The position numbers were made by a program, and so were the translations under genes. A DNA stretch of 64,000 bases from Candidatus Nanoarchaeia archaeon (GTDB taxonomy: Archaea > Nanobdellota > Nanobdellia > Woesearchaeales > SKIA01), in the NCBI GenBank assembly GCA_028279685.1, contig JANQNG010000002.1, forward strand, positions 76,144 through 140,143. The letters run 5' to 3'. Positions 1 to 23,636 of this stretch are shown piece by piece; positions within the stretch are counted from its first letter, which is position 1, and every line of letters starts with the position of its first letter. The notes beneath the pieces were generated by a model, which was not told the DNA's origin, ran no database searches, and saw nothing but the letters and a program-made list of their open reading frames with translations.

Positions 1-203
1 TCAATATAACCTTCACTCTTTTTTAGAAAATAAAAAACAATATTCGAAGCAATAAGTGCAATCACTGCAAGTATCATAAAAATACCAAATAAATCTTCAG
101 CTCCCTCAGTCGCTTTTTTTAACAAAGTCCAAATCAAAAAAATTAAATAAATATTAAAGATTGCCCAAAGTACAATATAAACTTTGAATTTCTTTAATTT
201 CAT
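1..203 (-). CDS. small 2-TM membrane protein, 5' part only (ATG = revcomp of 201-203; runs off window start); putative immunity protein for the orphan RHS toxin tip
   Basis: Own translation of minus strand: MKLKKFKVYIVLWAIFNIYLIFLIWTLLKKATEGAEDLFGIFMILAVIALIASNIVFYFLKK...; two hydrophobic helices; sits immediately downstream of toxin tip 244..1281; resembles the 68-aa 2-TM protein at 1432..1638 in size and architecture. Confidence 0.35.
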   Translation of the reverse strand, partial: MKLKKFKVYIVLWAIFNIYLIFLIWTLLKKATEGAEDLFGIFMILAVIALIASNIVFYFLKKSEGYI

Positions 204-243: not shown

Positions 244-1281
244 TCATGAACATACTGTTACTTGTAAATTCCCATATGTTTGTGTTACGCAATTTGTACC
301 TTCATCATCTCCTCCTCCAGAGCCTCCCCCTCCTCCTGTAGGACCATCAGTTGTACTTTGTGTAGACTCTTCTTCATTGTTTAAACCAGCATAGTTTATC
401 CAAAAATTCACATCCCCTCCACTACCTCCAGAACCTGCCGTATTACTTGGTTGAACTGAGGAAGTCATATCTGTTGATTGAGTCAATAAATCTTTATCTG
501 AATCTTTCTTTACACATTTAGGACAATCATCATTTTCTTCAGCATATTTTTCAGCTTTCTTCGTAGATTCTTTGATACTCTCCGAACCTATAAACACTGT
601 TGTCGCCATCCACAGTGCCCCTACAGCTACTGTTACTGTTCCAGCTACTGCACTCATTATTCCCAACATAGCACCTTTAGCTCCAGACAAGGCAACATCC
701 CTTTTTGAATAAATCATTCCAGTTTCTCTTCTTTGGATTATCACTTCTGATGTAACCCCAATTATCGCACCGATAGCAACTCCAACAAGTATTGCAGCAA
801 TTAATGGAACAATATGTCCTGAAGGATCTGTATGTTTGTAAGAATTTTGCATCTCGAATCCATATCTGTTCAACGATTGCGGATTGTATATCGAAGGAAT
901 AATATTATCAGGTCGATTGAACATTCCTATACTTGCATCGTATGTTCTGAATTCAAAGTCATAACCAGAGTAACTGTCTTGTTCTTTTCCTTCATAATCA
1001 TATCTTGAACTACCGCCAGAAAGTACTTCGCCATAAGGCGAATAGCTTGTGTTTTCTATAACATCTCCTGATGAATCAGTCACTACCGTCGAGCTACCTA
1101 AATGATCACTATGATGATATAATTTTACTTCTGATAATTCCTCAGCTACTAGACTTCCTTCATGATAAACATATGTAGTATCATAAGTCCCGCTATCGTT
1201 GATGACTCTAATGTTTGTTTTATCAAAATAGACAACAGTCTCAGTAAGAGTCTCGCTCTCATCATACGTTTTCTTGACCAA
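244..1281 (-). CDS. orphan RHS/YD-repeat C-terminal toxin cassette (core-end region plus divergent toxin tip; 5'-truncated, no signal peptide)
   Basis: Translation carries the RHS core end (YDYEGKE..RTYDASIGMFNRPDNI..YNPQSLNRYGFE..DPSGH), then a glycine-zipper/TM-rich segment and a Gly/Ser linker ending NCVTQTYGNLQVTVCS. Nucleotides ~1040-1424 are near-identical to ~3290-3673 inside the full RHS gene. The frame stays open upstream to a stop at ~1433 without an ATG; the listed start is TTG, in frame with the homologous Leu of the full gene. Confidence 0.7.
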   Translation of the reverse strand: MVKKTYDESETLTETVVYFDKTNIRVINDSGTYDTTYVYHEGSLVAEELSEVKLYHHSDHLGSSTVVTDSSGDVIENTSYSPYGEVLSGGSSRYDYEGKEQDSYSGYDFEFRTYDASIGMFNRPDNIIPSIYNPQSLNRYGFEMQNSYKHTDPSGHIVPLIAAILVGVAIGAIIGVTSEVIIQRRETGMIYSKRDVALSGAKGAMLGIMSAVAGTVTVAVGALWMATTVFIGSESIKESTKKAEKYAEENDDCPKCVKKDSDKDLLTQSTDMTSSVQPSNTAGSGGSGGDVNFWINYAGLNNEEESTQSTTDGPTGGGGGSGGGDDEGTNCVTQTYGNLQVTVCS

Positions 1282-1431
1282 AACTCGTTCTTCTGTTGGA
1301 TGGTAGATGTATTCTTGGATTATGTTATCATTGGTTGCATTTCTAATAGTGCTTAATTGGTTTAGTGAATTATATTCGCGATAAAAGTCTTCATCAGAGT
1401 TACGAAGTAGGTTTCCGTTTGCAACAAGAAA

Positions 1432-1638
1432 TCAATAAAATTTGTCACCCAATTTTGTAGAAGCACCCAATACTCTCCAAACACCAATTATAATCATAAC
1501 AACAAACAAAAAATAATAATTCTTCAAATACAATGCAATAATTACTAAACATGCGGAAATTAGCACTGAAATAACAGTAAATATTAATTTTTTTTCATCA
1601 AGCTTTATTTTCTTTTCATCCATTAAACTATAACACAA
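1432..1638 (-). CDS. small 2-TM membrane protein (putative immunity protein)
   Basis: 68 aa with two hydrophobic helices; position directly downstream of the 93-aa toxin-tip-like ORF. Confidence 0.35.
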   Translation of the reverse strand: MCYSLMDEKKIKLDEKKLIFTVISVLISACLVIIALYLKNYYFLFVVMIIIGVWRVLGASTKLGDKFY

Positions 1639-1692
1639 TTCAAATATAAATAGTTATTGTTTTTATACACTGTTTATTAATAAATAAAAACA

Positions 1693-1974
1693 TTATGAGC
1701 ATACTGTTACATATCCAAAACCAAGGTAATAGGTGGTTGTGCATGTTTGACCTTCTGAATCTCCACTTCCACCGCCGGAGCCCCCGCCACCTCCCCCGCC
1801 AGAAGAACCCCCTCCAGTATTTGTATAATTATGGGTAAGATTCCAGTTGAGATCGCTTAATGCGTCGAGATCTCCTTTTTTACCTTCGAAACGTTCAGAG
1901 CAGAGGTATTTCATATTCTCTACGGTATCATTGATATCATTAGAAACAATCACTTCATACGTTGTATTAGACAC
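1693..1974 (-). CDS. small protein carrying the same C-terminal Gly/Ser-linker + Cys module as the orphan RHS tip (possible relic toxin tip)
   Basis: C-terminus GGGSSGGGGGGGSGGGSGDSEGQTCTTTYYLGFGYVTVCS parallels the orphan tip's GGGGGSGGGDDEGTNCVTQTYGNLQVTVCS; both genes share an 11-nt identity (catactgttac) within otherwise divergent 3' ends (244-330 vs 1693-1780). Confidence 0.4.
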   Translation of the reverse strand: MSNTTYEVIVSNDINDTVENMKYLCSERFEGKKGDLDALSDLNWNLTHNYTNTGGGSSGGGGGGGSGGGSGDSEGQTCTTTYYLGFGYVTVCS

Positions 1975-2012
1975 ATTCCTTGAATATCTTTAAAGAAAAA
2001 GTTAATAGAGAA

Positions 2013-2387
2013 CTATTTGTTAATCATATCTTTAAAATGTTTATAGCTATCCTCTCTTTCAAAAATATATGAATCAAATGTAAAAGAAAAAGTTTTCATT
2101 TTCTCTATTAGTGTTATAGTGATGCTATTGTTTAAAATCTCAACAGAATATATTATTCCAGAATATGCATTTTTATCTTTTGGGAAAACATAATTTCCAT
2201 TGTCGTCAATAAAGACACATTCTTTCCAAAATTCAAGAAAATCTTCATAATTCTTCGGATTGGAAAACTTAAAAACTCCAAAAGGTTTTCCAGGATTCCA
2301 GTGTGTGTCTATATTTAACATAATCGATAACTCAGAATCTTTAAGATTGACTTCTTTGATTTCTGAATCGTGAAAATTTTCTTTCAT
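2013..2387 (-). CDS. putative cytoplasmic immunity protein of the RHS toxin
   Basis: 124-aa ORF immediately downstream of the RHS toxin gene on the same strand; no recognisable family; assigned by position only. Confidence 0.35.
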   Translation of the reverse strand: MKENFHDSEIKEVNLKDSELSIMLNIDTHWNPGKPFGVFKFSNPKNYEDFLEFWKECVFIDDNGNYVFPKDKNAYSGIIYSVEILNNSITITLIEKMKTFSFTFDSYIFEREDSYKHFKDMINK

Positions 2388-2427
2388 TGTAAACGTATGT
2401 GCACTGATATTTAAATAATTTCTCTAT

Positions 2428-3765
2428 TTATGTCTGATAACCGTCATCATCACAAGTGTCACACACCCAGTCTCCATCATCTGTCTGACGAACATTTGGA
2501 TGATTTGGATTTCCTCCAGACCAACCACCACCAATAAGTTGTTGAATTTGTGGACTTTCTGAATTAGGAGTTCCGCTTCCACCAAACCAATAATCCATTA
2601 ATATAGGTAAATTAATTGTTGGCATAACATTAAAATATGAAAAATAAGAAATATGGTCTAATATACCTCTATTTGCAAATTCAATCAATTTCCCATTTTT
2701 TATAGTATATCTGTGGTGATTTATATGTGGAAACTCCATTCCTGAATGCCCAAAATCATCTCTGATAATATCAACAGTTTTCCCCGAACGTTTTGCTAGC
2801 CCAGAACCAAATTGCTCAAGTCTTTGACGAATTGTACTTCGTGGATGAAATTCTTCAGCATGTTTATATCCTTGTTCTCTTAAAACTCGATATGATTCTC
2901 CTTTTCTAAATACACTGTCTCCTACTCTTGGCTTTACTTCATTTCTTGACATTACATAGTCTACAGGTATATTTACTCTTCCTTGACTTTGTCCTAATAA
3001 TGGTGTTGGCATAATTTGATTTTGACCTAATACAAGAGCAGTTGGATTAACCATTAATGCCATCCTACCATCAGGATCTATTTTGCTCATAGGATTACCA
3101 TCTTCAAACATATAGGGATTTAATCCCTGGGGATTATACGTATTCATTATATTATCTGGCTGGTTAAATATGCCATACTCCGAATTACTCATTCTCGCTT
3201 CAAAATCAATCTCCCTAGTAACTTCATCTGTTTCTTTTCCTTCATAATCATATCTGCTGGAGCCACCTGTTAATACCTCACCATACGGAGAGTAAGAAGT
3301 ATTTTCAATTACATCTCCTGATGAATCAGTCACTACCGTCGAGCTACCTAAATGATCACTATGATGATAAGTCTTAACCCCAGATAACTCCTCCGCTACT
3401 AGGCTACCTTCATGATATACATAAGTTGTATCATAAGTGCCACTATCGTTGATGACTCTAACGTTTGTCTTGTCAAAGTAAACCACAGTTTCTACTAAAG
3501 TCTCGCTCTCATCATACGTTTTCTTGACCAAAACTCTCTCTTCTGTTGGATGGTAGATATATTCTTGGATTATGTTATCATTGGTTGCATTACGTATAAT
3601 ACTCAATTGATTAAGCGAATTATATTCTCGGTAAAAATCTTCATCAGAGTTACGAAGTAGGTTTCCGTTTGCGTCATAGGTTCGAGATATTTCTGCAGCG
3701 AAAACCAAAGGAAAAGTTGTGACGAGCAATATAAGTAGTCCGGAGATAAATAGCTTAGATTTCAC
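2428..3765 (-). CDS. secreted mini-RHS/YD-repeat polymorphic toxin (signal peptide, few YD repeats, RHS core end, C-terminal toxin domain with FPHINHH motif)
   Basis: N-terminal signal peptide MKSKLFISGLLILLVTTFPLVFAAE; YD repeats (YDANGNLL, YDTTYVY, YDYEGKE); core end YNPQGLNPYMFEDGNPMSKIDPDGRM followed by a ~210-aa variable C-terminal domain. Confidence 0.8.
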   Translation of the reverse strand: MKSKLFISGLLILLVTTFPLVFAAEISRTYDANGNLLRNSDEDFYREYNSLNQLSIIRNATNDNIIQEYIYHPTEERVLVKKTYDESETLVETVVYFDKTNVRVINDSGTYDTTYVYHEGSLVAEELSGVKTYHHSDHLGSSTVVTDSSGDVIENTSYSPYGEVLTGGSSRYDYEGKETDEVTREIDFEARMSNSEYGIFNQPDNIMNTYNPQGLNPYMFEDGNPMSKIDPDGRMALMVNPTALVLGQNQIMPTPLLGQSQGRVNIPVDYVMSRNEVKPRVGDSVFRKGESYRVLREQGYKHAEEFHPRSTIRQRLEQFGSGLAKRSGKTVDIIRDDFGHSGMEFPHINHHRYTIKNGKLIEFANRGILDHISYFSYFNVMPTINLPILMDYWFGGSGTPNSESPQIQQLIGGGWSGGNPNHPNVRQTDDGDWVCDTCDDDGYQT

Positions 3766-4016
3766 GCAATCACCCCCCTTACACTAACAGCGTTAACAAA
3801 TACTATTTAATATTTTGTTGTCATAATAGGATAACACCTAAAAATTTATCCCGAAAACCTAAAAATTTATCTCGTTTTCTGTGAAGGATTTCACAACAGC
3901 GATACCGCATTACGTCTCAATAAGCAAATCTAATCAGCATGAGATTATATGTATTAGAAATACAAAAAGATGACTTCACTGACTGGTATCGCTATTACAA
4001 CAAGAAAAGATATCGC

Positions 4017-5681
4017 TTACACATTAAAAGGCAATGCTGTCAATCCATCTTCGTGGTATTTTTTCATTACATCCCAAACATCAAAATAATCAAAAATCTT
4101 ATGTTCGACCATCCTCTGCAGGATCTTTGTCCTGAGATCAAGCTCCTTATATATATCACGAGTGTCTTCAAATCCAAGAATAGTAGCTATTTTCTTCTCG
4201 AGAATATAACTATTGAATAATCCTCTGAAAATATGTTTATCAGAAACAGGATCCCAATTAAATACTTCTCTCGTAATCACTTTATTGGCAACATCATAAT
4301 AACGCTCAATTTCAGTGATTGATAACACTCTTCTTACCATATGTCCTCCTCGAGAAACAGCTTGCTGAATCAACACAATATTGAGATTATCTATTGATGC
4401 AATAGGCACATCAATAGGATGCGACGTAATACGTTGTATCATACTATGAGGACTACCTGCGTGAAACGTACTCATCACAGGGTGACCTGTCTGCATAGCT
4501 TGGAATGCAACATTACCTTCTTCACCTCGTATCTCTCCTACAATAATATAATTTGGACGACTACGCAAAGCAGCAATCAACAGATCAAAAATTGTGACAT
4601 CAGAATCTTTCCCTGATTCTCTTGTGACAAGATGCTGCCACGTTGCATGAGGAATTGTAACCTCAGGAACATTCTCTACCGTGTATACTTTATCATCAGG
4701 TTTTATAAAACAGCACATCGCATTCAATGATGTTGTCTTTCCTGAAGCTGTTTCTCCACAAACAAACGTATTCATACCATTTTCTAAAGCCAACCACATA
4801 TATGCAGCAACGCGTGCACTCATCGTTCCCCAATTGATAATTTGTGTTATACTCACTGGCACTTCTGAGAATTTACGAATGGTGAAGCTGGAACCTTCGA
4901 GCGATAGCTCTCGCGAATAAATATAGTTTACACGAGAACCGTCAGGCATAATTGCGTCTACAACAGAATGTGCATCACTTACTGGACGCTCCACGCGCTC
5001 AGAGCTTTCAATAACATATTTGTCTAATTCAAAATCATCTTTGAAGTCGATATTGGTGTAAACCATATCGAAAATCTTATGGATCACTTTCATAGCACCA
5101 ACACCAGTACAATGCAGATCTTCAAGATAAGGATCATAGAAAAGCGGTTCAAGTTTTGCATAACCTACTCTATTCCTGATAATGAAGTACTTCAATGAAT
5201 CATACGTGTAAGGATCTAAAACAAGTTTTTTTGATCCTAATGCCTTGCTCTTCGGAATAACAACTTTTGCCCCCTCCTTTATCTCAACGACATCATTCAT
5301 GATTTTCAGAATAACAGGTTCAGCATCCTCAACTTTGTCAGGCACAGGATACCTATGTGCATATTCAACCATTTTGTTTGTTACGAGTTCGTAAAGCGTT
5401 CTCATCCGATCATCTAAGGCAGGCTCTACAACAGTATAAGTAATATGCATCCCTGGCTGCCTGAGAATATGCACAAACAATGGATCCCCTATAGGATAAA
5501 TAAGATTTACTTTTTTCTTTCTCATACCTTTATCGAGTTTAAGATGCCATTCTGGATCACCATATTTCTCAACAATCTTCTCAACATACTTAGAAAGATG
5601 CGGATAGTTATCCTGCGCATCGAGGAAATTCTCTGTTTTTGGTGCATGTCTTCTTTTTGCCATCTTAGCTGAAACTTGCAA
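4017..5681 (-). CDS. flaI: archaellum ATPase FlaI/ArlI (type II/IV secretion ATPase family)
   Basis: 554 aa; Walker A GETASGKTT; conserved FlaI-like regions; located after flaH. Confidence 0.9.
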   Translation of the reverse strand: MQVSAKMAKRRHAPKTENFLDAQDNYPHLSKYVEKIVEKYGDPEWHLKLDKGMRKKKVNLIYPIGDPLFVHILRQPGMHITYTVVEPALDDRMRTLYELVTNKMVEYAHRYPVPDKVEDAEPVILKIMNDVVEIKEGAKVVIPKSKALGSKKLVLDPYTYDSLKYFIIRNRVGYAKLEPLFYDPYLEDLHCTGVGAMKVIHKIFDMVYTNIDFKDDFELDKYVIESSERVERPVSDAHSVVDAIMPDGSRVNYIYSRELSLEGSSFTIRKFSEVPVSITQIINWGTMSARVAAYMWLALENGMNTFVCGETASGKTTSLNAMCCFIKPDDKVYTVENVPEVTIPHATWQHLVTRESGKDSDVTIFDLLIAALRSRPNYIIVGEIRGEEGNVAFQAMQTGHPVMSTFHAGSPHSMIQRITSHPIDVPIASIDNLNIVLIQQAVSRGGHMVRRVLSITEIERYYDVANKVITREVFNWDPVSDKHIFRGLFNSYILEKKIATILGFEDTRDIYKELDLRTKILQRMVEHKIFDYFDVWDVMKKYHEDGLTALPFNV

Positions 5682-6366
5682 TCTCTATAGCAAGTCCTTT
5701 ACCTGCCTCTACCTTATAAGGTATAGCGCTCAATACATTTGATCCACTTCTCTTAAATCGTTTAACCTTCATTACTCTGACAATCTCTCCTGCAAAACTA
5801 CTGATCTCCAATTCAAGAATCACATCACTAACATTCTTCACCAATGTCAATAATTTTGGATGAATGTGATCTTGATCAATATCAATAATCACCGTTTTTC
5901 CGAGTGAAGTAAGTCTTTTTAGGAAATAGATGAATTGAAATAATTCACGTTCCGTGGTATCATCTTGAACAATCAAGAAGCTTATTGTATCGAGAATTAT
6001 CACATCTTTGCTGTAGAGCCTAGAAGAATTCATCAATCTTTGGAGCATACCTCTTTGCAGCCTTGACTTTCCATAAAAAGGAAACATGGGAACAAACATC
6101 AAATCATCATCAAGCAAATAATACTTACAATCATAATCAAGGCTTGCCATCTGTTCAATAAATCCGACAGTATCAAGTTCAGAGCTAATATATGATGCAG
6201 TGTATCCTGCCTGCAATAATCCATAGCACATTCTTTGAGAGATAATGCTTTTTCCTGAGCCATCTTGTCCTGTAATAAGAATCAACGCATCTTTAGGTAT
6301 ACCTCCTCCTATGTTTCTGTTCAGTTCATCCCTTTCAAGGTCTATGGAAAGTACTTCTGATTTCAT
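5665..6366 (-). CDS. flaH: archaellum protein FlaH/ArlH (RecA/KaiC-like ATPase)
   Basis: 233 aa; Walker A GQDGSGKS; overlaps flaI start as is typical of archaellum operons. Confidence 0.85.
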   Translation of the reverse strand: MKSEVLSIDLERDELNRNIGGGIPKDALILITGQDGSGKSIISQRMCYGLLQAGYTASYISSELDTVGFIEQMASLDYDCKYYLLDDDLMFVPMFPFYGKSRLQRGMLQRLMNSSRLYSKDVIILDTISFLIVQDDTTERELFQFIYFLKRLTSLGKTVIIDIDQDHIHPKLLTLVKNVSDVILELEISSFAGEIVRVMKVKRFKRSGSNVLSAIPYKVEAGKGLAIEIASFS

Positions 6367-7250
6367 GGTGTCACCGTGATCGTCGCTGAGTTTTCAAATT
6401 CAGTAACGGCTTTCACAATCGTATTACCTCCTAATGTTTCAAAGATGTAAAGATCTATGATCTCTCCCGGAGACCAGAGCGTAGGCTGCAGATCATCATT
6501 CGTAATAAACTCTACTCGATCTGAATCATTACGTTTGATACGTTCCGACCCGACATAAACATCAACTTTTTCAAAATCATATGTTGTTGTTCCATCATTA
6601 GAAAGTGTTAAATAGATATGAGGACTTTGTCTCATAATAGTGATATTAACTTGATCAACTTTCGCTGTTTCTTGTGTATCCACCGTCTCAAGATCAATCT
6701 TAAGTTGTATCATCGAACTTTCATTATGAGTGATATTTATTTCTTCTCCTGAAGAAGTATAATAATCAAGAGGCCCATCAGGTCCAATGAAATCAGCATT
6801 TTCTATCTGTGTCGAAGTATTTCCTGAACGTAATTGAAAACGAACTGATGTTCCCACAGGAAGTGTAGCATTCCAGTAGATCTTTGAGAAATTGCTCGAG
6901 ATATTTATGTCATAGACTTCTGAATAGTATGTTGCTGAATTGTTGTAATCAGTGCCATTCCATACTGTCTGGATTGATCCGGGTGTGGTGTTTGTGTCAA
7001 TATTCGTAAAATTTGTTCCTCTATCAAAATCAGTTTTGAGTGTTAATACCCAAGGGATGTACATTGGATTATTGTATTGCTCTCCTGTGATTGATATTTC
7101 GCTTTCAAGCATTTTCAAGAGACGATCCTGCTTTTCCGTTATTGCTTCTTCCTTCTCGAGGAGCTTTGCCTGCACTACAAAGAATCCCCCTACAAGCATA
7201 GAGACTACTAAAAACAAAATCACCATTCCTGCAATCGAAGCAAATCCCAT
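6363..7250 (-). CDS. archaellum FlaF-like membrane-anchored protein, rich in N-glycosylation sequons
   Basis: N-terminal TM helix MGFASIAGMVILFLVVSMLVGGFFVV; more than 10 N-x-S/T sequons; position between a FlaG-like gene and flaH. Confidence 0.45.
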   Translation of the reverse strand: MGFASIAGMVILFLVVSMLVGGFFVVQAKLLEKEEAITEKQDRLLKMLESEISITGEQYNNPMYIPWVLTLKTDFDRGTNFTNIDTNTTPGSIQTVWNGTDYNNSATYYSEVYDINISSNFSKIYWNATLPVGTSVRFQLRSGNTSTQIENADFIGPDGPLDYYTSSGEEINITHNESSMIQLKIDLETVDTQETAKVDQVNITIMRQSPHIYLTLSNDGTTTYDFEKVDVYVGSERIKRNDSDRVEFITNDDLQPTLWSPGEIIDLYIFETLGGNTIVKAVTEFENSATITVTP

Positions 7251-7736
7251 TTAGTAATCCTCTGTTTTCTTCACTCCATTATCAGTAAGTAACGCAAACT
7301 CATGGCTAATCGATCCATCAATAGTCATGTTCACTGATACTTTGATAATCTCCTTTGTGTTCCAGATGCCAACATCAACAGTATCCGTATCTGATTCGAC
7401 AGCAATAGTTCTATTAGTCTCATTTCTAGGGATACGCAACCCGTCGATATAGATATCTATCTTTGAAACGTTATGTTTCTTCTTCCCAGTGTTTTTGATA
7501 TACGCAAAAGTATAATCAGGATCTCCCGAATCTTCATAGTAAACTGTTTCAATTTTGAAATCAGTATCAATAATATCAGTAAGACTTTCTTGTTTATCGT
7601 ACATTGCTGTTGTGGATTTGTCGGATGAACTTTTGAACACTAATGCTGCAGCAGTAGCTAATCCTAATACTGCTATGAAGATTATGAGGCTTGAAACGAC
7701 TTCTCCTGCCGCTTTTTTTGACTTAAACATTTTCAA
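7251..7736 (-). CDS. archaellum FlaG-like protein with class III (prepilin-like) signal peptide
   Basis: N-terminus MKMFKSKKAAGEVVSSLIIFIAVLGLATAAALVF; first gene of the co-oriented flaG-flaF-flaH-flaI block. Confidence 0.45.
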   Translation of the reverse strand: MKMFKSKKAAGEVVSSLIIFIAVLGLATAAALVFKSSSDKSTTAMYDKQESLTDIIDTDFKIETVYYEDSGDPDYTFAYIKNTGKKKHNVSKIDIYIDGLRIPRNETNRTIAVESDTDTVDVGIWNTKEIIKVSVNMTIDGSISHEFALLTDNGVKKTEDY

Positions 7737-7900: not shown

Positions 7901-8440
7901 ATGTCAAGAACAATACTCCTCCCCAATAAACTTGCAGGAGTTCTTCATAATCTCACAAAATATAAGGAAGAACATAACGGAGTGCTTATCTATCGCCCAG
8001 ATAGCAAGTATCATCCAGATAGTTACTATTGTCCTGTGTCTTATGCAGGAATCACAGGAAAAGGCACCCCAGGGCATGTGCGAGCAGACCCTAGATCAAT
8101 TGAAATACTCAATGCTTTTCTCAAAGAAAATCCTGAACATCGCTATATCAAATGGCATACTCATTCTGTCGAAACTATAAGAACATTTGGAAATTACTAT
8201 GCAGAGAATTTCTCTTCAGGAGACATTAGTAGCTATGATGAACAAATTAATTACGATCCTGATTTTATAGGTATGGTTGTAACTCCAAAAAAAATACTCA
8301 TTTATGGCAGAGATAATCCAAAAATAAGAACAGTTTCTTCTTTTCCATCGACGGAAAATAAAAGAATTAAAAAAAGAATAGAAGAGCATATGCGACAGAA
8401 GAATTTTTCTATAAGAGATATTTTAGAAAAAAAATCTTAA
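7901..8440 (+). CDS. hypothetical protein, possibly a JAB/MPN-like metalloprotease fold
   Basis: Weak motif match: E..WHTHS...SSGD with non-canonical spacing; otherwise unrecognised. Confidence 0.3.
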   Translation: MSRTILLPNKLAGVLHNLTKYKEEHNGVLIYRPDSKYHPDSYYCPVSYAGITGKGTPGHVRADPRSIEILNAFLKENPEHRYIKWHTHSVETIRTFGNYYAENFSSGDISSYDEQINYDPDFIGMVVTPKKILIYGRDNPKIRTVSSFPSTENKRIKKRIEEHMRQKNFSIRDILEKKS

Positions 8441-8988
8441 TCTACAAACAGACTATGTTTCTCGTTGCCGTCGAGCTCTTTCATGATGCGCTTGAAAATT
8501 GCTTTCTCAGGATCGGGAAGCAATTTAACACGTTTTTTCAAATTATCAAAACTCAGGAAAGGATCTCCTCTTCTCTCTTCTATAATCTCCCACATATGCT
8601 TCTTTCCCAATCCAGGCAGAAGTTCTAATGAATGCATTCTTGTACTGAGAGGTTGTGCATTGTTGAAGAAGTCGATATAGATCTTCTCATTCTTTTTAAT
8701 AATATCCATGATCACATGCTTCAGTTCACTTTTTGCCGTTGCGGTAAGCTTATGCATCTCAAGTTTACCGTTGATATGATGAATCTCATCTCTCTTCCCT
8801 TCCCCAATATAGACGTTCTGGTTGAGGTTAAGATAGACATCTTTCTTTGGAACAAGTTCCAGTAAAGAGAATCGTAGTGTGCCGACCGCTTGCGCAAGAG
8901 GAGTTTTTTTATAGTCAGGCCTATTATCAGCAGAATAGCCGTTTGGCAAGAAATCTAAGATTATTGCATGCTCTTCCTTGGACTCCAT
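8437..8988 (-). CDS. DUF655/COG1491-type predicted nucleic-acid-binding protein of the L21e-RpoF cluster
   Basis: Sits in the conserved archaeal L21e-RpoF-DUF655 gene order; C-terminal helix-hairpin-helix-like region; ~180 aa. Confidence 0.55.
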   Translation of the reverse strand: MESKEEHAIILDFLPNGYSADNRPDYKKTPLAQAVGTLRFSLLELVPKKDVYLNLNQNVYIGEGKRDEIHHINGKLEMHKLTATAKSELKHVIMDIIKKNEKIYIDFFNNAQPLSTRMHSLELLPGLGKKHMWEIIEERRGDPFLSFDNLKKRVKLLPDPEKAIFKRIMKELDGNEKHSLFVD

Positions 8989-9043
8989 CGCGCGACCCCC
9001 TCATATCTCTCTTGAACCCTCGTGTTTATAAATTTTTCCAGAA

Positions 9044-9388
9044 TTAGAGGTATTTCTTAAAAACCTCAAAGAGCTTAGCAAGGTTATCTTTGCTTAATGT
9101 CAGATTGAAAGCACCCAGAATAAATTTCATCTCTTGCTCGGTAGAAGGCATCATATCAATGATTTTAACAATATGAATATCTTTGATTCGTGGAAGATCC
9201 AAGCCAGCAATATCTTTCTTCAATGCTTTGATATCTTTCAGTTTCAGCGTGGAGAATTTGTTGAGGTAGTCTTCTGTTCTCGCTGCCCTGAAGTTGAGTT
9301 CACCATCTCTCTTTTTAATTTTAGAAAGTTCGTTCTTCAGCTCACTCAATGAGATTGCCTCTTCCTCGACTATAGTTATATCAGTCAT
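9044..9388 (-). CDS. rpoF: DNA-directed RNA polymerase subunit F (Rpo4/RpoF)
   Basis: 114 aa; immediately downstream of L21e as in many archaea; Rpb4-like helical protein. Confidence 0.65.
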   Translation of the reverse strand: MTDITIVEEEAISLSELKNELSKIKKRDGELNFRAARTEDYLNKFSTLKLKDIKALKKDIAGLDLPRIKDIHIVKIIDMMPSTEQEMKFILGAFNLTLSKDNLAKLFEVFKKYL

Positions 9389-11331: not shown

Positions 11332-13384
11332 CATGCTCTTCTTTTGTGATCCTAAGAACATGATCCGCCATTGATTCTAGTTTTGATTCATGACTTACCA
11401 CAATACATTGATTAATGTGTAGATTATCGAAAACATCCTTAAGTTTATCTAATTGTTCTGAAGAAAAACCATCAGTAGGCTCATCGAGAATAATAATATC
11501 TTTTGTTGTGATATGACTGACAAAATCATTAATCACTTTATTCAATGCAAGCCGATACGCTAACGCCAATGAAGTTTTTTCTCCTCCCGACATGCTTTTC
11601 GCTTCAATATCATAACCGTTCTGAATTACTTCTGGAGAAAATTGTTCATCAATACTTGCGTTGATTGCGTCATCCTCTATGAGATTATCAAACAATTCAA
11701 TGAAAGCATCATTAAACTGTTGCTGAAGAGAAGCCATCACACGCTTCTCCATCACAAGAAATACTTTATCAAGATACTGAGTTAGCCAGTCATGGAGCGC
11801 TTTCATCCTGTCTCTTTTTTTCCTTATTTCTTCCAATTCATTAATCTTGCTCTCAGCTTCTGTCTTTCTTTTTTCTTCGGCATTCTTCGTCGCCATAAGA
11901 CGCGCCTCCTCAACAGAACATGTCTGTAGTGATGCTTGTAGCGTATCAATAAGTGCCTTCTGTTTCTCGTAGTTTTTCTCTGTATGCTTGAATCCTGCAA
12001 GCTCTTTTTTTGTCTGTTGAAGTTGCTCTTCTGTCGCTTTTTTTCTATCTGCCGCATCCTTCATTTCTTGTTCAATACCTTCAATTAACTGCTTCTTTTC
12101 ATTAAATTGTTTCTTGTTCATAGAAAATATTTTCTTCTCTTCAATTCGTCCATGTATCTTTTTGATATTGTTCTTGAGTATCTCTATATTGCTCTTTGTT
12201 GTTTGAAGTTGATTATTGATCTCAGGAATTTTCTCTTTTTGTTGCTCTATAAGATCATCTGCCTTTTTGTTAATATGATGTTTGTGCTTTTCATCCACTT
12301 TCTGAAGGCAAACAGGACATTGTTCAAGAGTATCCATATTAGTCTTAATATCTTGCTGTTCATCTATCTTTGAACTAATTCTTGCCTTCTGTTCTGATAT
12401 AGTAACAAGTTTTTCCTCTTGTCTTGCAAGTTTTTCCTGCTGTTGCTCAAGAAGCTTATCATAATCACGATCAAGCACTTTTGTCGTGCTAATCTCTTCC
12501 TCAAGATGTTTCAGATCTTCTTGAAGATAAGCTTTCTGCTCCTTTTTTTTCTCGATAGTCGCGTCAATATCCTCAACTCTATCAGAGAGCATAGTTATTG
12601 TGTTTTTGCAAGTTATTGCTTTCTGTCTCTCGTCGTCAAGTGATTCAAGCACTGACTTTGCTTTCTGCACTTCTTTTTCCGCTTTTTCTTTTTTTGGCAT
12701 TAGCACATCAAGGCCTTTCTTTATTTTCGAAAGTATCTTTTTCGTTTCTTCAAGAACATTTTTTACTAAGCGTTCGTCATCGAATTTCGAAGAGAGGAGT
12801 TTCATAGTTATTCGCATCTCTTTCGTATAAAGTGCAAGATTTTCTCTGCAGGTTTTGTATTTATCAATGCCAAACACTGAACGTAACGTGTTCAAACGCT
12901 CATCAGGATTCTCGAAAAGGATATGCTTCATCTCCTCTTGTGGAGTATACACTGTGTATCGATAGATTAATGATTTCGATTTTGTAACGAGCTCTTCAGG
13001 ATAGCCAAGAATAGTGAGTATTTTTGACTTAAGTTCTATTGCAGTAAGGTCTTGTTTGACGTCATCTTTGATCAGATATCCTGCAGCTTGCGTGATACCA
13101 TTCGTTGTTCTTTTGAGTTTTCTGCCAATGATATACTTGTGTTTTCTAATAGAGAATGAGAGCTCAACCTCTCCTTCTTTGCATCCTGTTCGTAACAAGC
13201 TGCTTGCTGAGACTGAACCTCGAATAACTCCGAACAAAGCAAACTCAATCGCTAAAAGAATCGATGTTTTTCCACAGCCAATATCTCCTGAGAGTAATGT
13301 CGTGCCTTCTTGAAATGAGACAGAAGACTCTTCGTATGATCGTATATTCCTTAGCTTGAGGGAATCGATATGCATAGTAATCAA
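11315..13384 (-). CDS. rad50: Rad50/SbcC-family SMC-like ATPase with zinc hook
   Basis: N-terminal Walker A GDIGCGKTSIL; long coiled coil with central CPVC hook; C-terminal signature SGGEKTSLALAYRLAL and Walker B IIILDEPTDGFS. Confidence 0.85.
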   Translation of the reverse strand: MITMHIDSLKLRNIRSYEESSVSFQEGTTLLSGDIGCGKTSILLAIEFALFGVIRGSVSASSLLRTGCKEGEVELSFSIRKHKYIIGRKLKRTTNGITQAAGYLIKDDVKQDLTAIELKSKILTILGYPEELVTKSKSLIYRYTVYTPQEEMKHILFENPDERLNTLRSVFGIDKYKTCRENLALYTKEMRITMKLLSSKFDDERLVKNVLEETKKILSKIKKGLDVLMPKKEKAEKEVQKAKSVLESLDDERQKAITCKNTITMLSDRVEDIDATIEKKKEQKAYLQEDLKHLEEEISTTKVLDRDYDKLLEQQQEKLARQEEKLVTISEQKARISSKIDEQQDIKTNMDTLEQCPVCLQKVDEKHKHHINKKADDLIEQQKEKIPEINNQLQTTKSNIEILKNNIKKIHGRIEEKKIFSMNKKQFNEKKQLIEGIEQEMKDAADRKKATEEQLQQTKKELAGFKHTEKNYEKQKALIDTLQASLQTCSVEEARLMATKNAEEKRKTEAESKINELEEIRKKRDRMKALHDWLTQYLDKVFLVMEKRVMASLQQQFNDAFIELFDNLIEDDAINASIDEQFSPEVIQNGYDIEAKSMSGGEKTSLALAYRLALNKVINDFVSHITTKDIIILDEPTDGFSSEQLDKLKDVFDNLHINQCIVVSHESKLESMADHVLRITKEEHVSQLS

Positions 13385-14469: not shown

Positions 14470-14580
14470 AGCCCTGTAGTGTAGTGGCCAATCATTCTAG
14501 CCTTTGGAGCCGGAGCGAAGCTAGGCGGCTTTGCTTCGCAAAGACAGCTGGAGACCGCGGTTCGAATCCGCGCGGGGCTA
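14470..14580 (+). tRNA. tRNA-Gln (anticodon TTG) with a 38-nt intron at canonical position 37/38
   Basis: Hand fold: acceptor AGCCCTG/CGGGGCT, D arm GTGTAGTGGCCAATCAT, anticodon stem CTAGC/GCTGG, loop CTTTGG|intron|A, T arm CGCGG-TTCGAAT-CCGCG, discriminator A; A1-U72 and a GGGCUA 3' end fit my recollection of archaeal tRNA-Gln. Confidence 0.7.
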
Positions 14581-16574: not shown

Positions 16575-17210
16575 CTATCTCAATATTTCATCCAACTGTT
16601 TCTTGATTTCTTGTTTACCTTCAGATGTTCTGATATCAATATCACCATAAGGTACTTTCACTAAAGGCACACCGAATTCATCCTCGCAGAATTCAGGAAA
16701 GTCATGATATCTATTGCCTAGTCCCCTAAGAAAACTTTCAGGAATCTCCTTCTCTTCAGTACGTGCTCTGATTTCTTTAATACGTCTCATTAATACATCA
16801 ATATTATTATTCTCAAGATAAATAATGTGATCTGGTTGAATAAGATGCTCATTAACAAGCTGAAACATCATGGAATAATCATGGTATTCATTGAGGCTCA
16901 TCTTTCCTATAGTATGCAAATATCTTGCAAAGATTGCAGGATCTTCAATCAATGATCTATCTTGCACGCAGTTGACTTCTTCTTTCCTGACGGCAATCTC
17001 TATTGATTTCAAATGCGATGCACGCCTATAAAGAAAATGCATCTGCAAAGTATACGCCCAACGTTTCATATCCTTATAATATGATTCGAGAAAAGGATTA
17101 TCAATAACAGGTTCTTCAAACAATCTATAACCATATTCCTCGTGAATAAATCTAGCAAATGTAGATTTTCCAACACCTATATTCCCTGCAATTGTCACAA
17201 ATTTAGCCAT
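16575..17210 (-). CDS. deoxynucleoside kinase (dNK/dCK/dGK family)
   Basis: P-loop GNIGVGKST, then EEPV..NPFL..YY.D..RWA...Q..FL..R pattern typical of deoxynucleoside kinases. Confidence 0.75.
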   Translation of the reverse strand: MAKFVTIAGNIGVGKSTFARFIHEEYGYRLFEEPVIDNPFLESYYKDMKRWAYTLQMHFLYRRASHLKSIEIAVRKEEVNCVQDRSLIEDPAIFARYLHTIGKMSLNEYHDYSMMFQLVNEHLIQPDHIIYLENNNIDVLMRRIKEIRARTEEKEIPESFLRGLGNRYHDFPEFCEDEFGVPLVKVPYGDIDIRTSEGKQEIKKQLDEILR

Positions 17211-17946
17211 CGAGTAATTCCCTCACCTTTTCAGCAATCCTATCGAGGTTCTTTCCTCCTTTCTCAAAATTCAATTTGCCAGAATTCACTATCATTTTCG
17301 GCCCTTTATAGGAAAAAAACAGCTTCCGATATCTTTTGTCAAGCTCCTGCAAATACATATTCTTTGATTGTGTAAGCTCTTTCTCATAAGGATTGTTCCT
17401 TTTTCTCAGACGTTGCTTCAACGTCCTTACAGGAGCAGAGAGAAAAATCAACAAATCAGGTTTCTTCAACTTTCTTGTAAGTAAAAAATAGAGGATTTTA
17501 TATTTGAGATAATCACCAACACGCATTAAACCTTTCTTATAGCTATTTTTTGTAAAAATCTCTTTATCCTCATAGATACTTCTATCTTGAATAATAGGCT
17601 CATCATAGCTAAGAATCTTCTTGTGATCTCTTACTCTGTTAATCAAATAAAACTCCTGCAGTTGATATGATGCTTTCTGTGCCAATCTTCTAATGTTCTT
17701 ATCATGAGGATTGCATTCCATGAGCTTTAACCATTTATAGAATGCAGGAAGAAAAGGATTATCTCTCACAGGCTCTTCATACATTCGTATCCTAAGTTTC
17801 TTGGAGAGCTTTTTTGCTAGTGTTGTTTTCCCAGAAGCAATATTCCCTGCAATCACAATAAAAAAATGGTTTCCCATCATCCCACCGAACGCAAAAAGTA
17901 AAGACATATAAACTTTTCGCAGATTTATATATTGAAATACTGACAA
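17203..17946 (-). CDS. deoxynucleoside kinase paralog
   Basis: P-loop GNIASGKTT, EEPVRDNPFLPAFYKW motif; tandem with the previous kinase (8-nt overlap). Confidence 0.7.
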   Translation of the reverse strand: MSVFQYINLRKVYMSLLFAFGGMMGNHFFIVIAGNIASGKTTLAKKLSKKLRIRMYEEPVRDNPFLPAFYKWLKLMECNPHDKNIRRLAQKASYQLQEFYLINRVRDHKKILSYDEPIIQDRSIYEDKEIFTKNSYKKGLMRVGDYLKYKILYFLLTRKLKKPDLLIFLSAPVRTLKQRLRKRNNPYEKELTQSKNMYLQELDKRYRKLFFSYKGPKMIVNSGKLNFEKGGKNLDRIAEKVRELLDG

Positions 17947-22682: not shown

Positions 22683-23636
22683 TTAAGAAAGAAATTTCTG
22701 ATTCAGCGCATCTCCTAAATCGAGAAGGTATTCCTTGCCGAATTCATTATTATAGAGATCATCAAGCAGGAAATGAGGTAAAATATCAAGATCTTGTCGA
22801 ATTGCCGTAAGACCTACTGCTAGCGCAGCAACGCTATCAGTATCTCCTCCAAGCAAAACAGCTTGTTTCAATACCTCTGAAGCACTAGGGTAACAATGCT
22901 GAAGAATATACATGACTGCTCCCAATGTCTTAGGTCCATGACAGGGAACACCAACATCTGCATTACCTTCTCCAAACAAAGTTTCAGGGTCAAATGATTG
23001 CATCGTGTAAGTTTTTTCAAGATAATTCGCAGTTTCGGGATGAATTTGAGCAACATGTTCTTGTACTTGTTTTGACAAACTCATAATATCTTTGTTAGTG
23101 TGCATTAAGTAATGTGCAGCAACAGCAATACCGACAGAAGAAACTTTTCCCTCAGGAGTATTGTGTGTAAGCTCTGCATTGATAATAGCGTAATCGATAA
23201 CCTTCTTTAAGTCATTAACAAACCCTATTGGAATAGCTCTCATCGCAGCACCGTTGCGTATTGAGTCATCTTTAATACCGTAAAGAAATTCTTCCCCTGA
23301 ACCAACAACTTCAAGAAATTTCTGAAATCCTCCTGCATATCCTTTGATAGGATCTCGTTTATAACACCCAACAAAAAAATCAGCTAGATTATTGTGGTTG
23401 AATCTATTATCTGAAATCAATAATTCTGCAATCGCAATTGACATCTGTGTATCATCAGTATATCTTCCAGGAGTACACCATTCTGGATTCGGATGATTGC
23501 TATACCTCGAAAAATCAAACGCCTTCTTGATCTCTTTTCTTCCTCCAGGATAGAACTCATATCCTACTCCGAAGGTATCACCTATGGCAATACCCAGCAT
23601 TGTTCTTTGTCCAGTATTCATGGTGCTGGAAATCAC
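22683..23636 (-). CDS. ADP-ribosylglycohydrolase family protein (DraG/ARH-like)
   Basis: MLGIAIGDTFGVGYEF, GRYTDDTQMSIAIAE, GGDTDSVAALAVGL motifs. Confidence 0.8.
   Translation of the reverse strand: MISSTMNTGQRTMLGIAIGDTFGVGYEFYPGGRKEIKKAFDFSRYSNHPNPEWCTPGRYTDDTQMSIAIAELLISDNRFNHNNLADFFVGCYKRDPIKGYAGGFQKFLEVVGSGEEFLYGIKDDSIRNGAAMRAIPIGFVNDLKKVIDYAIINAELTHNTPEGKVSSVGIAVAAHYLMHTNKDIMSLSKQVQEHVAQIHPETANYLEKTYTMQSFDPETLFGEGNADVGVPCHGPKTLGAVMYILQHCYPSASEVLKQAVLLGGDTDSVAALAVGLTAIRQDLDILPHFLLDDLYNNEFGKEYLLDLGDALNQKFLS

Follow-up and report, generated by a model that had tools for sequence, protein, structure and literature searches.

A probable polymorphic-toxin locus built from short RHS units in a Woesearchaeota-like archaeon

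Bacterial Rhs loci, e.g. those of Enterobacteria, combine a main rhs gene with displaced orphan rhs-CT/immunity cassettes and with repeats of core homology. Does a similar arrangement exist in archaea of the DPANN type? The question is raised by one end of a 64,000-nt stretch of contig JANQNG010000002.1 (hereafter the window; coordinates are window positions unless a relative's locus is named), where the gene for a short protein with RHS/YD repeats, the main mini-RHS gene, is followed by a second, 5′-truncated copy, the orphan. Together with four small genes they make up six open reading frames (ORFs), all on the minus strand and arranged head to tail. We consider it probable that these ORFs, with mini-RHS units as their building blocks, constitute a polymorphic-toxin locus in an archaeon of the DPANN type (Woesearchaeota-like). 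The features of the locus, in which the variable C-terminal parts of the proteins are called tips and TM denotes transmembrane, are as follows:

3770..3778, minus strand: Shine–Dalgarno (SD)-like sequence GGGGGGTGA, read directly from the DNA, 5 nt 5′ of the GTG of the main gene
3765..2428, minus strand: main mini-RHS gene, an ORF of 445 aa with a GTG start, comprising a signal peptide, YD repeats, an Rhs-associated core and tip CT1
3697..3765, minus strand: predicted Sec-type signal peptide, aa 1–23 (MKSK, LFISGLLILLVTTFPLVF and A, followed by AE), recognized by its n-, h- and c-region pattern as read from the sequence
3064..3696, minus strand: YD-repeat hairpins and Rhs-associated core, aa 24–234, ending at IDPDG, placed by model and fold match
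2431..3063, minus strand: tip CT1, aa 235–445 (211 aa), a putative toxin with a Gly-rich linker and a C-x2-C tail
2387..2013, minus strand: imm1, a 124-aa ORF for a putative CT1 immunity protein, a role assigned from position only
1974..1693, minus strand: 93-aa ORF, apparently the C-terminal tail remnant of a CT3-class tip, by similarity to the tails of the database protein P0002 and the orphan
1638..1432, minus strand: two-TM ORF with a length of 68 aa (TTG start) or 63 aa (ATG start at 1623), putative immunity gene of the remnant tip
1431..244, minus strand: orphan mini-RHS cassette, a 395-codon open frame with its core at 1431..814 and tip CT3 at 813..247
203..1, minus strand: TM-rich ORF of at least 67 aa, putative CT3 immunity gene, continuing past the left edge of the window
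3199..3672, no strand assigned: direct repeat, main-gene copy, from local alignment
952..1422, no strand assigned: direct repeat, orphan copy, with a start-to-start spacing of 2250 nt

Five of the ORFs had been listed in a preliminary description made from the sequence, and their coordinates and strand proved to be as claimed there; one of them is the 345-aa ORF at 1281..244, which begins with a TTG. The sixth, ORF 203..1, was absent from that list; it starts with an ATG at 203–201 preceded by GGAGAG, and its translation (MKLKKFKVYIVLWAIFNIYLIFLIWTLL...IFMILAVIALIASNIVFYFL) contains two hydrophobic spans. In the window as a whole, SD-like motifs precede 22 of the 54 long ORFs.

The presence of an RHS core domain had been set beforehand as the check on which this reading depended. 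With TIGR03696, the curated NCBIfam model of the Rhs-associated core (cutoff 32.5 bits), the main protein scored 44.0 bits (aa 158–233) and the orphan 40.9 bits, and the related proteins P0002, P0041, P0123 and P0124 also exceeded the cutoff; matches to the Pfam models RHS and TEN_YD-shell by themselves were below the Pfam cutoffs. In an AlphaFold2 (AF2) model computed from a 65-sequence alignment, aa 25–200 of the main protein form β hairpins with 15 β strands and a predicted local distance difference test (pLDDT) score of 80–96, and aa 2–20, in the signal-peptide region, form a helix. Foldseek superposed about 200 aa of this model on 8qja, 7q97, 8uxt, 6suq, 4igl and teneurins with a root-mean-square deviation of 2.5–3.7 Å, and the E values against Rhs effectors, TcC proteins and teneurins ranged from 1e-6 to 1e-8. 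Because the TM-score normalized to the target was about 0.16, i.e. the match covers approximately 16% of the solved shells, the main protein is, according to the model, the last segment of an Rhs shell (approximately one-fifth) plus the plug and a tip, with no cocoon. A complete closed cocoon with a shell of about 1000 aa was not found, as the protein contains about 200 shell residues in a total of 445 aa. The Rhs main-plus-orphan architecture put forward in the preliminary description therefore stands with respect to the RHS cores, the DPxG boundary, the 5′-truncated orphan and the core repeat, but the main gene is not a full-length Rhs gene.

In the 65-sequence alignment, conservation is strong as far as ..NPYKYxDPxGH, D230 and G233 being invariant, and directly after this motif the consensus is lost. 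Judged from the alignment, this break at DPxG is the classic boundary of polymorphic toxins, and the tips that lie beyond it in the main protein and the orphan (CT1 and CT3) are unrelated in sequence. The core end of Rhs1 contains two aspartyl-protease motifs of the DPxGL type, the second of which provides the catalytic Asp (PMC8636562). In the present proteins, this second motif is intact and invariant (IDPDG/TDPSG).

The main protein, which is 100% identical to the database protein P0001, belongs to a family of approximately 100 proteins of 390–450 aa, mainly from Woesearchaeota and Nanoarchaeota. All follow one common plan, namely a signal peptide and the motif x-L-x-L-x-YDANGNL, then a core spanning about 210 aa and, last, a variable tip of 170–210 aa, and in most members the signal-peptide pattern ends with ..(F/H)A directly before x-L-x-L-x-YDANGNL. 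At the window locus, a signal peptide is predicted for the main gene and is absent from the orphan, in agreement with the earlier claim of a secreted main protein and an orphan lacking both a signal peptide and an ATG. The tips of relatives include Tox-ART-HYD1 (110 bits), Tox-REase-7, Tox-MPTase3, Peptidase_M23, SLT and a borderline CHAP domain. The tips of P0083, P0112 and P0099 are of the peptidoglycan-degrading kinds (borderline CHAP, Peptidase_M23 and SLT); such tips would target bacteria, not archaea.

For CT1 itself, 1.84 billion representatives yielded no more than four relatives, all of them distant and two of them the tips of other mini-RHS proteins, and R101, D103, H106, H113, N115 and H137 are invariant in CT1 and these relatives. 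Searches of CT1 against Pfam, against NCBIfam and by word-indexed homology gave no significant match, and a profile of the four relatives matched nothing in PDB sequences or Pfam. The fold predicted by AF2 from the same alignment was poor (mean pLDDT 50), and its best Foldseek match in the PDB had an E value of 0.17. The R-D-H-H-N-H pattern might conceivably be HNH-like.

In many tips, the C-terminal end is made up of a Gly-rich linker and, after it, a short loop bounded by Cys residues (e.g. C-x12-C VTVCS, GCDVIMSCA, GCGKIMSCA and WVCDTCDD). Tails with such loops are encoded in the window at 2431–2530, 247–330 and 1696–1800 and are present in P0002, P0014, P0041, P0055, P0068, P0074, P0076 and P0093. 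Two or more Cys residues were found in the last 45 aa of 24 of the 93 family members, Cys accounting for 0.5% of residues overall. The tail hairpin of the main protein is modelled by AF2 with a pLDDT of about 77–80.

These properties raise the question of whether the proteins are toxins at all or, rather, variable surface or adhesion proteins used for host recognition by an episymbiotic DPANN cell, in which case the downstream ORFs would be unrelated in function. Neither CT1 nor the 124-aa ORF has a recognizable toxin or immunity domain, the Gly-rich linker and small Cys loop seen on many tips are a possible binding element, and the YD shells of teneurins serve in adhesion. However, relatives both close and distant carry bona fide toxin or lytic domains in the tip position, an RHS core with an invariant DPxG is a hallmark of releasable tips, and the pairing of tips with small ORFs, including that of membrane tips with TM ORFs described below, fits a toxin–immunity logic. 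We regard an adhesive role as quite improbable.

The cores of the main gene and the orphan form a direct repeat, local alignment of 952–1422 with 3199–3672 pairing 467 nt, of which 86% are identical; small indels occur at the tip end. A repeat had been reported in the preliminary description as near-identical over 1040–1424; it is real, but its identity there is approximately 86% and its true span, 952–1422, is longer. The 58-mer quoted as identical does occur exactly twice, at 1062 and 3312, and an exact 58-mer together with an 86% match over 470 nt within 64 kb is beyond chance. The two copies share 150 codons, of which 94 are the same in both, 48 show synonymous differences only and 8 encode different amino acids, and the Nei–Gojobori estimates for the shared core are 0.95 for the synonymous (dS) and 0.066 for the non-synonymous (dN) divergence, with a dN/dS of 0.07. 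On this codon comparison, the main and orphan cores are best described as two old alleles that diverged under protein-level selection, and not as a recent duplicate. The longest runs of identical codons contain 19, 12, 11 and 10 codons, and the longest identical nucleotide tracts are 59, 38, 35 and 32 nt; in a permutation analysis, this clustering of identity had p = 0.005 for the longest run and p = 0.0001 for the top three. Because the identical tracts are clustered on a background that is saturated for silent changes, the mosaic suggests gene conversion between the two copies.

It is also conceivable that the orphan is a decaying pseudogene left by tandem duplication or partial deletion, so that it would be no reservoir for recombination and the identical tracts would be relics. 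The orphan has neither an SD-preceded start nor a signal peptide, the adjacent 93-aa ORF is plainly a fragment, and no recombinant of the window locus was recovered. Against decay, the frame of 395 codons is intact in DNA of about 35% GC, a dN/dS of 0.07 at a dS of about 0.95 reflects divergence under protein-level selection, the identical tracts are clustered beyond the permutation expectation, and the layout of a main gene with truncated copies recurs in several genomes, one of which is closed. Decay is, in our estimation, rather unlikely, and the orphan is preferably read as a cassette held in reserve.

Since the contig is metagenome-assembled, an assembly artefact also has to be weighed, in which alleles of co-existing strains were joined in tandem or the repeat was mis-resolved. 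The related contig that encodes P0002 and P0003 comes from the same run, and the orphan junction is without independent confirmation. The copies are, however, 14% divergent with 48 purely synonymous codon differences, which disposes of the assembly collapse that the preliminary description had named as a risk, and their tips and downstream ORFs differ. In addition, a Logan contig (SRR20820740) is 100% identical to window positions 3340..1916 and has its 5′ end within the 59-nt identical tract; a break inside an identical tract is the expected behaviour of a de Bruijn assembly when the sample holds both copies. The same architecture is also found in the closed genome CP010425 and in other metagenome-assembled genomes (MAGs). 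Taken together, an artefact is very unlikely.

The frame of the orphan is open upstream to 1431, as had been claimed, and is bounded by a TGA at 1434–1432. The orphan matches positions 6–211 of a custom 211-position hidden Markov model (HMM) of the core, so that only the signal peptide and core positions 1–5 are missing. Within its first 90 codons, the TTG at 1281 alone qualifies as a possible start, and this TTG is without an SD-like motif. Its homology to the main gene begins at ANGNLL in the first YD repeat, 9 nt past the TGA of the two-TM ORF. The two-TM ORF and the orphan share a reading frame with this single TGA (1432–1434) between them, and they could therefore be regarded as one membrane-anchored mini-RHS gene that is split by an in-frame TGA through a nonsense mutation, a sequencing error or read-through. 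Several points argue against a single gene. TGA closes 13 of the window's 37 long ORFs; it is thus an ordinary stop in a standard genetic code, and recoding of TGA was ruled out on the same count. The homology starts inside the first YD repeat with the YD lost (ANGNL), as would be expected at a breakpoint, the family uses a cleavable signal peptide directly before YDANGNL, separate small TM ORFs follow membrane-type tips elsewhere, and a shared frame has a chance of 1 in 3. We give the single-gene explanation almost no credence.

In the orphan tip CT3, Gly-zipper-like hydrophobic TM segments occur together with a C-P-x-C motif, the linker is Gly-rich and the tail is bounded by Cys residues; from this composition CT3 is probably membrane-inserting. 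Over its entire length, the orphan can be aligned with P0002 (63% identity, E = 2e-154), which is full-length and bears a signal peptide. The CT3 class is the in-frame tip of P0002, which is encoded on a different contig from the window. Since this tip class is in frame on P0002, the orphan cassette represents a usable tip. Replacement of the main tip by the orphan tip, as anticipated in the preliminary description, is thus borne out only to the extent that the CT3 class is in use on a full-length protein. For both P0002 and P0003, the source given is a contig of 248,659 nt, apparently a single one, and the sequencing run that yielded imm1 of the window also yielded P0003. Two metagenome scans for the CT3 tip class gave no matches. 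P0002 was also considered as a recombinant of the main and orphan genes; its site pattern is suggestive but was not used, since the core end of P0003 is the same. The 93-aa ORF, which has neither an RHS core nor a signal peptide, had been called tip-like, and its last 54 aa or so indeed resemble tip tails, with 54% identity to that of P0002 and 38% to that of the orphan.

Each tip is followed directly downstream by a small ORF on the same strand. The imm1 ORF begins 40 nt past the stop codon of the main gene and encodes neither a TM segment nor a signal peptide; it is an ORFan, its sole database match being itself. For the TM-type ORFs, the loci of relatives provide parallels. Small multi-TM ORFs follow TM-rich, membrane-type tips in the loci L085, where the ORF (5321..5665) comes after the CT3-class tip of P0016 and was missed by the gene caller, L086 (3343..3576) and L004, where a 156-aa ORF comes after P0003; two of these tips are of the CT3 class. 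This recurrent pairing supports, but does not prove, the assignment of the two-TM ORF and ORF 203..1 as immunity genes. The similarity between these two ORFs is not significant. L085, which derives from a Woesearchaeota MAG, also contains a HEPN/nucleotidyltransferase (MNT-type) pair at 6383–7403, between two mini-RHS cassettes.

How widespread is this organization? Loci were surveyed by a profile-based scan of one genome per species, with the taxonomy stated for the best 40 loci; a genome scan with the main protein as a single query gave no matches. The best 40 loci are nearly all archaeal and belong to Woesearchaeota (including the closed CP010425), Nanoarchaeota, Pacearchaeota, Micrarchaeota, Altiarchaeota and Methanosarcinales, and bacteria appear among them only at 36% identity or less. 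A viral origin was rejected, as a scan of viral contigs gave generic RHS cores only, at no more than 34% identity.

In relatives, the mini-RHS gene (mini) normally occupies the second place in an operon, directly after a much larger gene (giant), and the start of the first, signal-peptide-bearing mini overlaps the TGA stop of the giant (NTGA). The overlap is 4 nt in 8 of 8 giant–mini pairs and also in L085 and L004 (ten loci). The overlaps, of the form A/G/T-TGA, are located as follows:

L001, 5329–5332: giant/mini overlap
L002, 2886–2889: giant/mini overlap
L005, 9974–9977: giant/mini overlap
L006, 6366–6369: giant/mini overlap
L007, 10001–10004: giant/mini overlap
L009, 4986–4989: giant/mini overlap, first of two
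L009, 11705–11708: giant/mini overlap, second of two
L013, 10001–10004: giant/mini overlap
L085, 4001–4004: giant/mini overlap
L004, about 124–127: giant/mini overlap

The giants scanned contain FG-GAP repeats, TcdB_toxin_midN and RHS repeats, in L013 together with SpvB. They have signal peptides of their own and no Rhs core, and they share the C-terminal end ..NSS.Y.DN.TGVV... Downstream of the minis, more minis or 5′-truncated orphans are found, and the HMM matches of the orphans start at positions 44, 62, 81, 162, 183 and 185. Truncated orphans follow minis in at least four loci (L005, which lies in the closed AR15 genome, L007, L013 and L002); the upstream mini bears a signal peptide in L005, L007 and L013, and the direct repeats between orphans and upstream copies are 74–95% identical. 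The window locus has the layout seen in the relatives, minus the adjacent giant. In L005, about 900 nt of the 3′ region of the giant (8245–9133) are repeated at 12212–13100 with 79% identity, and this second copy precedes another signal-peptide-bearing mini-RHS gene, which suggests that units composed of a giant end and a mini duplicate as wholes.

From these elements a picture can be inferred in which the tips are toxic, the small ORFs confer immunity, the core cleaves itself, the mini docks to a giant and tips are actually switched. The main protein, consisting of the Sec signal peptide, the last nine or so YD hairpins, the plug and CT1, would be exported, and its core would cleave itself at IDPDG, thereby releasing or presenting CT1. 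CT1, presumably an enzyme, would then harm neighbouring cells, and the product of the 124-aa ORF would shield the producer. The downstream region would represent two older or alternative cassettes, one reduced to a tip tail with the two-TM ORF and the other a near-complete orphan with a small TM ORF. Having no promoter, start codon or signal peptide, the orphan would be only a silent spare copy of tip CT3. A crossover within the direct repeat would delete 2250 nt and join the promoter and signal peptide of the main gene to CT3, generating a P0002-like gene; such an event would switch the deployed toxin and keep the matching immunity gene. The mini most likely acts in the manner of a TcC subunit, as a swappable plug-plus-toxin that would complete, or dock to, the shell of a giant, and the window locus would then be a detached unit of the C type.

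Several observations weigh against this interpretation. CT1 and the 124-aa ORF match no recognized toxin or immunity family, and the AF2 model of CT1 is poor. A YD fragment of 210 aa is too small to enclose a 211-aa tip in the way a full Rhs cocoon does, and the window copies have NPQGL or NPQSL as their first aspartyl motif in place of DPQxL, the consensus of the family. At its 5′ junction (1423–1431), the orphan lacks independent assembly support, no recombinant joining the main 5′ end to CT3 was recovered for the window locus, and the mosaic pattern of P0002 is weak evidence, as P0003 has the same core end. Finally, the 64-kb window contains no TcB-like giant, the upstream neighbour of the main gene being a FlaI-like ATPase gene; docking would therefore be possible only in trans, or the mini would act alone.

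The comparison with known systems begins with the bacterial Rhs loci (Poole et al. 2011, PMC3150448). The window locus resembles them in its DPxG-bounded core, its hypervariable tips and the small gene after each tip, as well as in the promoterless, 5′-truncated copies downstream, the core homology in direct orientation and the signs of exchange. It differs in that the main protein has 445 aa rather than about 1400 aa, contains approximately one-fifth of a shell and is encoded by an archaeon. Moreover, the protein has only a Sec signal peptide, with no PAAR, VgrG or other N-terminus linked to a secretion system of type VI (T6SS), and the orphan retains nearly the whole core and not a short stub. 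The T6SS-delivered Rhs toxin Tse5 of Pseudomonas aeruginosa is described as pore-forming (PMC10684867). CT3 would be comparable in being a presumed membrane-acting tip with a small TM ORF next to it, a likeness drawn from hydrophobicity alone; the two share no sequence similarity, and export here would be by Sec instead of the T6SS.

The giant/mini pairs invite a second comparison, with Tc toxins. PF12256 serves as the marker of TcB and TIGR03696 as that of TcC, and an adjacent TcB homologue is the criterion for TcC (Song et al. 2021, PMC7861908). In the same study, 97% of TcCs measure 851–1050 aa, the hypervariable region is 201–400 aa in 97–98% of them, and bacterial orphan TcC genes located far from tcB are known. 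As in Tc toxins, the archaeal relatives pair a protein containing PF12256, a β-propeller and RHS repeats with a TIGR03696 protein that has a hypervariable region of 170–210 aa, and the mini of the window, detached from any giant, resembles a bacterial orphan TcC. Unlike TcC, the window protein is 445 aa long, although its 211-aa tip lies within the hypervariable range, and it has no TcB neighbour in the window. Two further differences from Tc toxins are the signal peptides on both archaeal partners, implying export before assembly, and the immunity-like gene after each unit, which points to microbial and not insect targets. No TcA-like translocator was noticed in the loci of the relatives, where no TcA-directed search was made. 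By its domain content, the giant/mini arrangement is TcB/TcC-like, with the split shifted far towards the C-terminus. We tentatively extend this to a broader proposal, which is possible but which we ourselves rather doubt: mini-RHS proteins would serve as exchangeable C subunits in a TcB/TcC-like system that is split, Sec-exported and widespread in DPANN archaea, and in this system the giant would provide most of the shell and the ~210-aa plug-plus-toxin would complete it outside the cell.

Archaea other than certain methanogens and haloarchaea generally have no polymorphic toxins, and TcdB/TcaC is listed as an export class for Euryarchaeota (Zhang et al. 2012, PMC3482391). With their signal peptide, SpvB or β-propeller and RHS repeats, the giants of the relatives resemble that class. 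For Methanosarcina acetivorans, the same study reports RHS toxins that come with cassettes and immunity genes; the statement in the preliminary description that this architecture is rarely reported in archaea is thus fair, with the qualification that a precedent exists. Like the M. acetivorans system, the window locus is an archaeal RHS system with spare cassettes and immunity genes, but the Methanosarcina toxins are long, single-chain and stalked, whereas the unit described here is a separate short gene, detached from any giant, in a DPANN genome. Archaeal polymorphic toxins have been predicted (Makarova et al. 2019) but never characterized experimentally (PMC8416519). In the literature searched, no paper was found that links DPANN with RHS or TcdB, although the family might be described by Makarova et al. 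2019. The principle of a main gene with orphan tips and immunity genes is not new, being textbook knowledge in bacteria and noted in Methanosarcina. What appears to be new to the literature is a TcC-like unit in DPANN that is short and bears a signal peptide, together with the conserved way in which it is coupled to a TcB-like giant.

The surroundings of the locus agree with the archaeal host claimed in the preliminary description. Directly upstream and on the same strand are genes for an archaellin (PF01917), a KaiC/FlaH-like ATPase and a FlaI-like T2SSE ATPase, with DUF655 nearby, and the nearest named relatives of the main protein are from MAGs of Candidatus Woesearchaeota and Nanoarchaeota. 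A 111-nt tRNA match at 14470–14580 (Rfam, 45 bits), missed by ARAGORN, probably contains an intron. The upstream genes form an archaellum or type IV pilus-like operon at 4017–7736, composed of the archaellin gene (7736..7251), a 295-aa ORF (7250..6363), the FlaH-like gene (6366..5665) and, as the last gene, the FlaI-like gene (5681..4017). No FlaJ/T2SSF-type membrane gene was found among the window ORFs scanned; the toxin locus occupies the usual position of flaJ and may be an insertion. Between the FlaI-like gene and the main gene, the intergenic region contains at 3833–3874 two tandem 21-nt direct repeats (AACACCTAAAAATTTATCCCG and AAAACCTAAAAATTTATCTCG) that are 90% identical and lie approximately 70–110 nt 5′ of the main gene start, and they are a candidate regulator binding site or promoter element. 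Two adjacent deoxynucleoside-kinase genes and one ADP-ribosylglycohydrolase gene, located at 16575–17946 and 22683–23636, are apparently unrelated to the toxin locus.

Little is known to date about how DPANN archaea compete with other cells or act on them. The locus described here offers a compact and tractable example, in which a presumably secreted protein of 445 aa has a partner of 124 aa and a silent cassette provides an alternative that has its own partner. Through the 4-nt overlaps, the orphan arrays and the varied tips of its relatives, the family provides a testable model of modular toxin delivery in archaea, with a tip repertoire that includes ADP-ribosyltransferase, nuclease, metallopeptidase and peptidoglycan-hydrolase domains, and CT1 defines a putative family of toxin tips that has no match among known families. 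If the proposal of a split, TcB/TcC-like system is true, a single delivery scaffold would serve many interchangeable tips and would represent an archaeal relative of Tc toxins that is put together outside the cell, and it would be a candidate weapon or host-interaction device of episymbiotic archaea.

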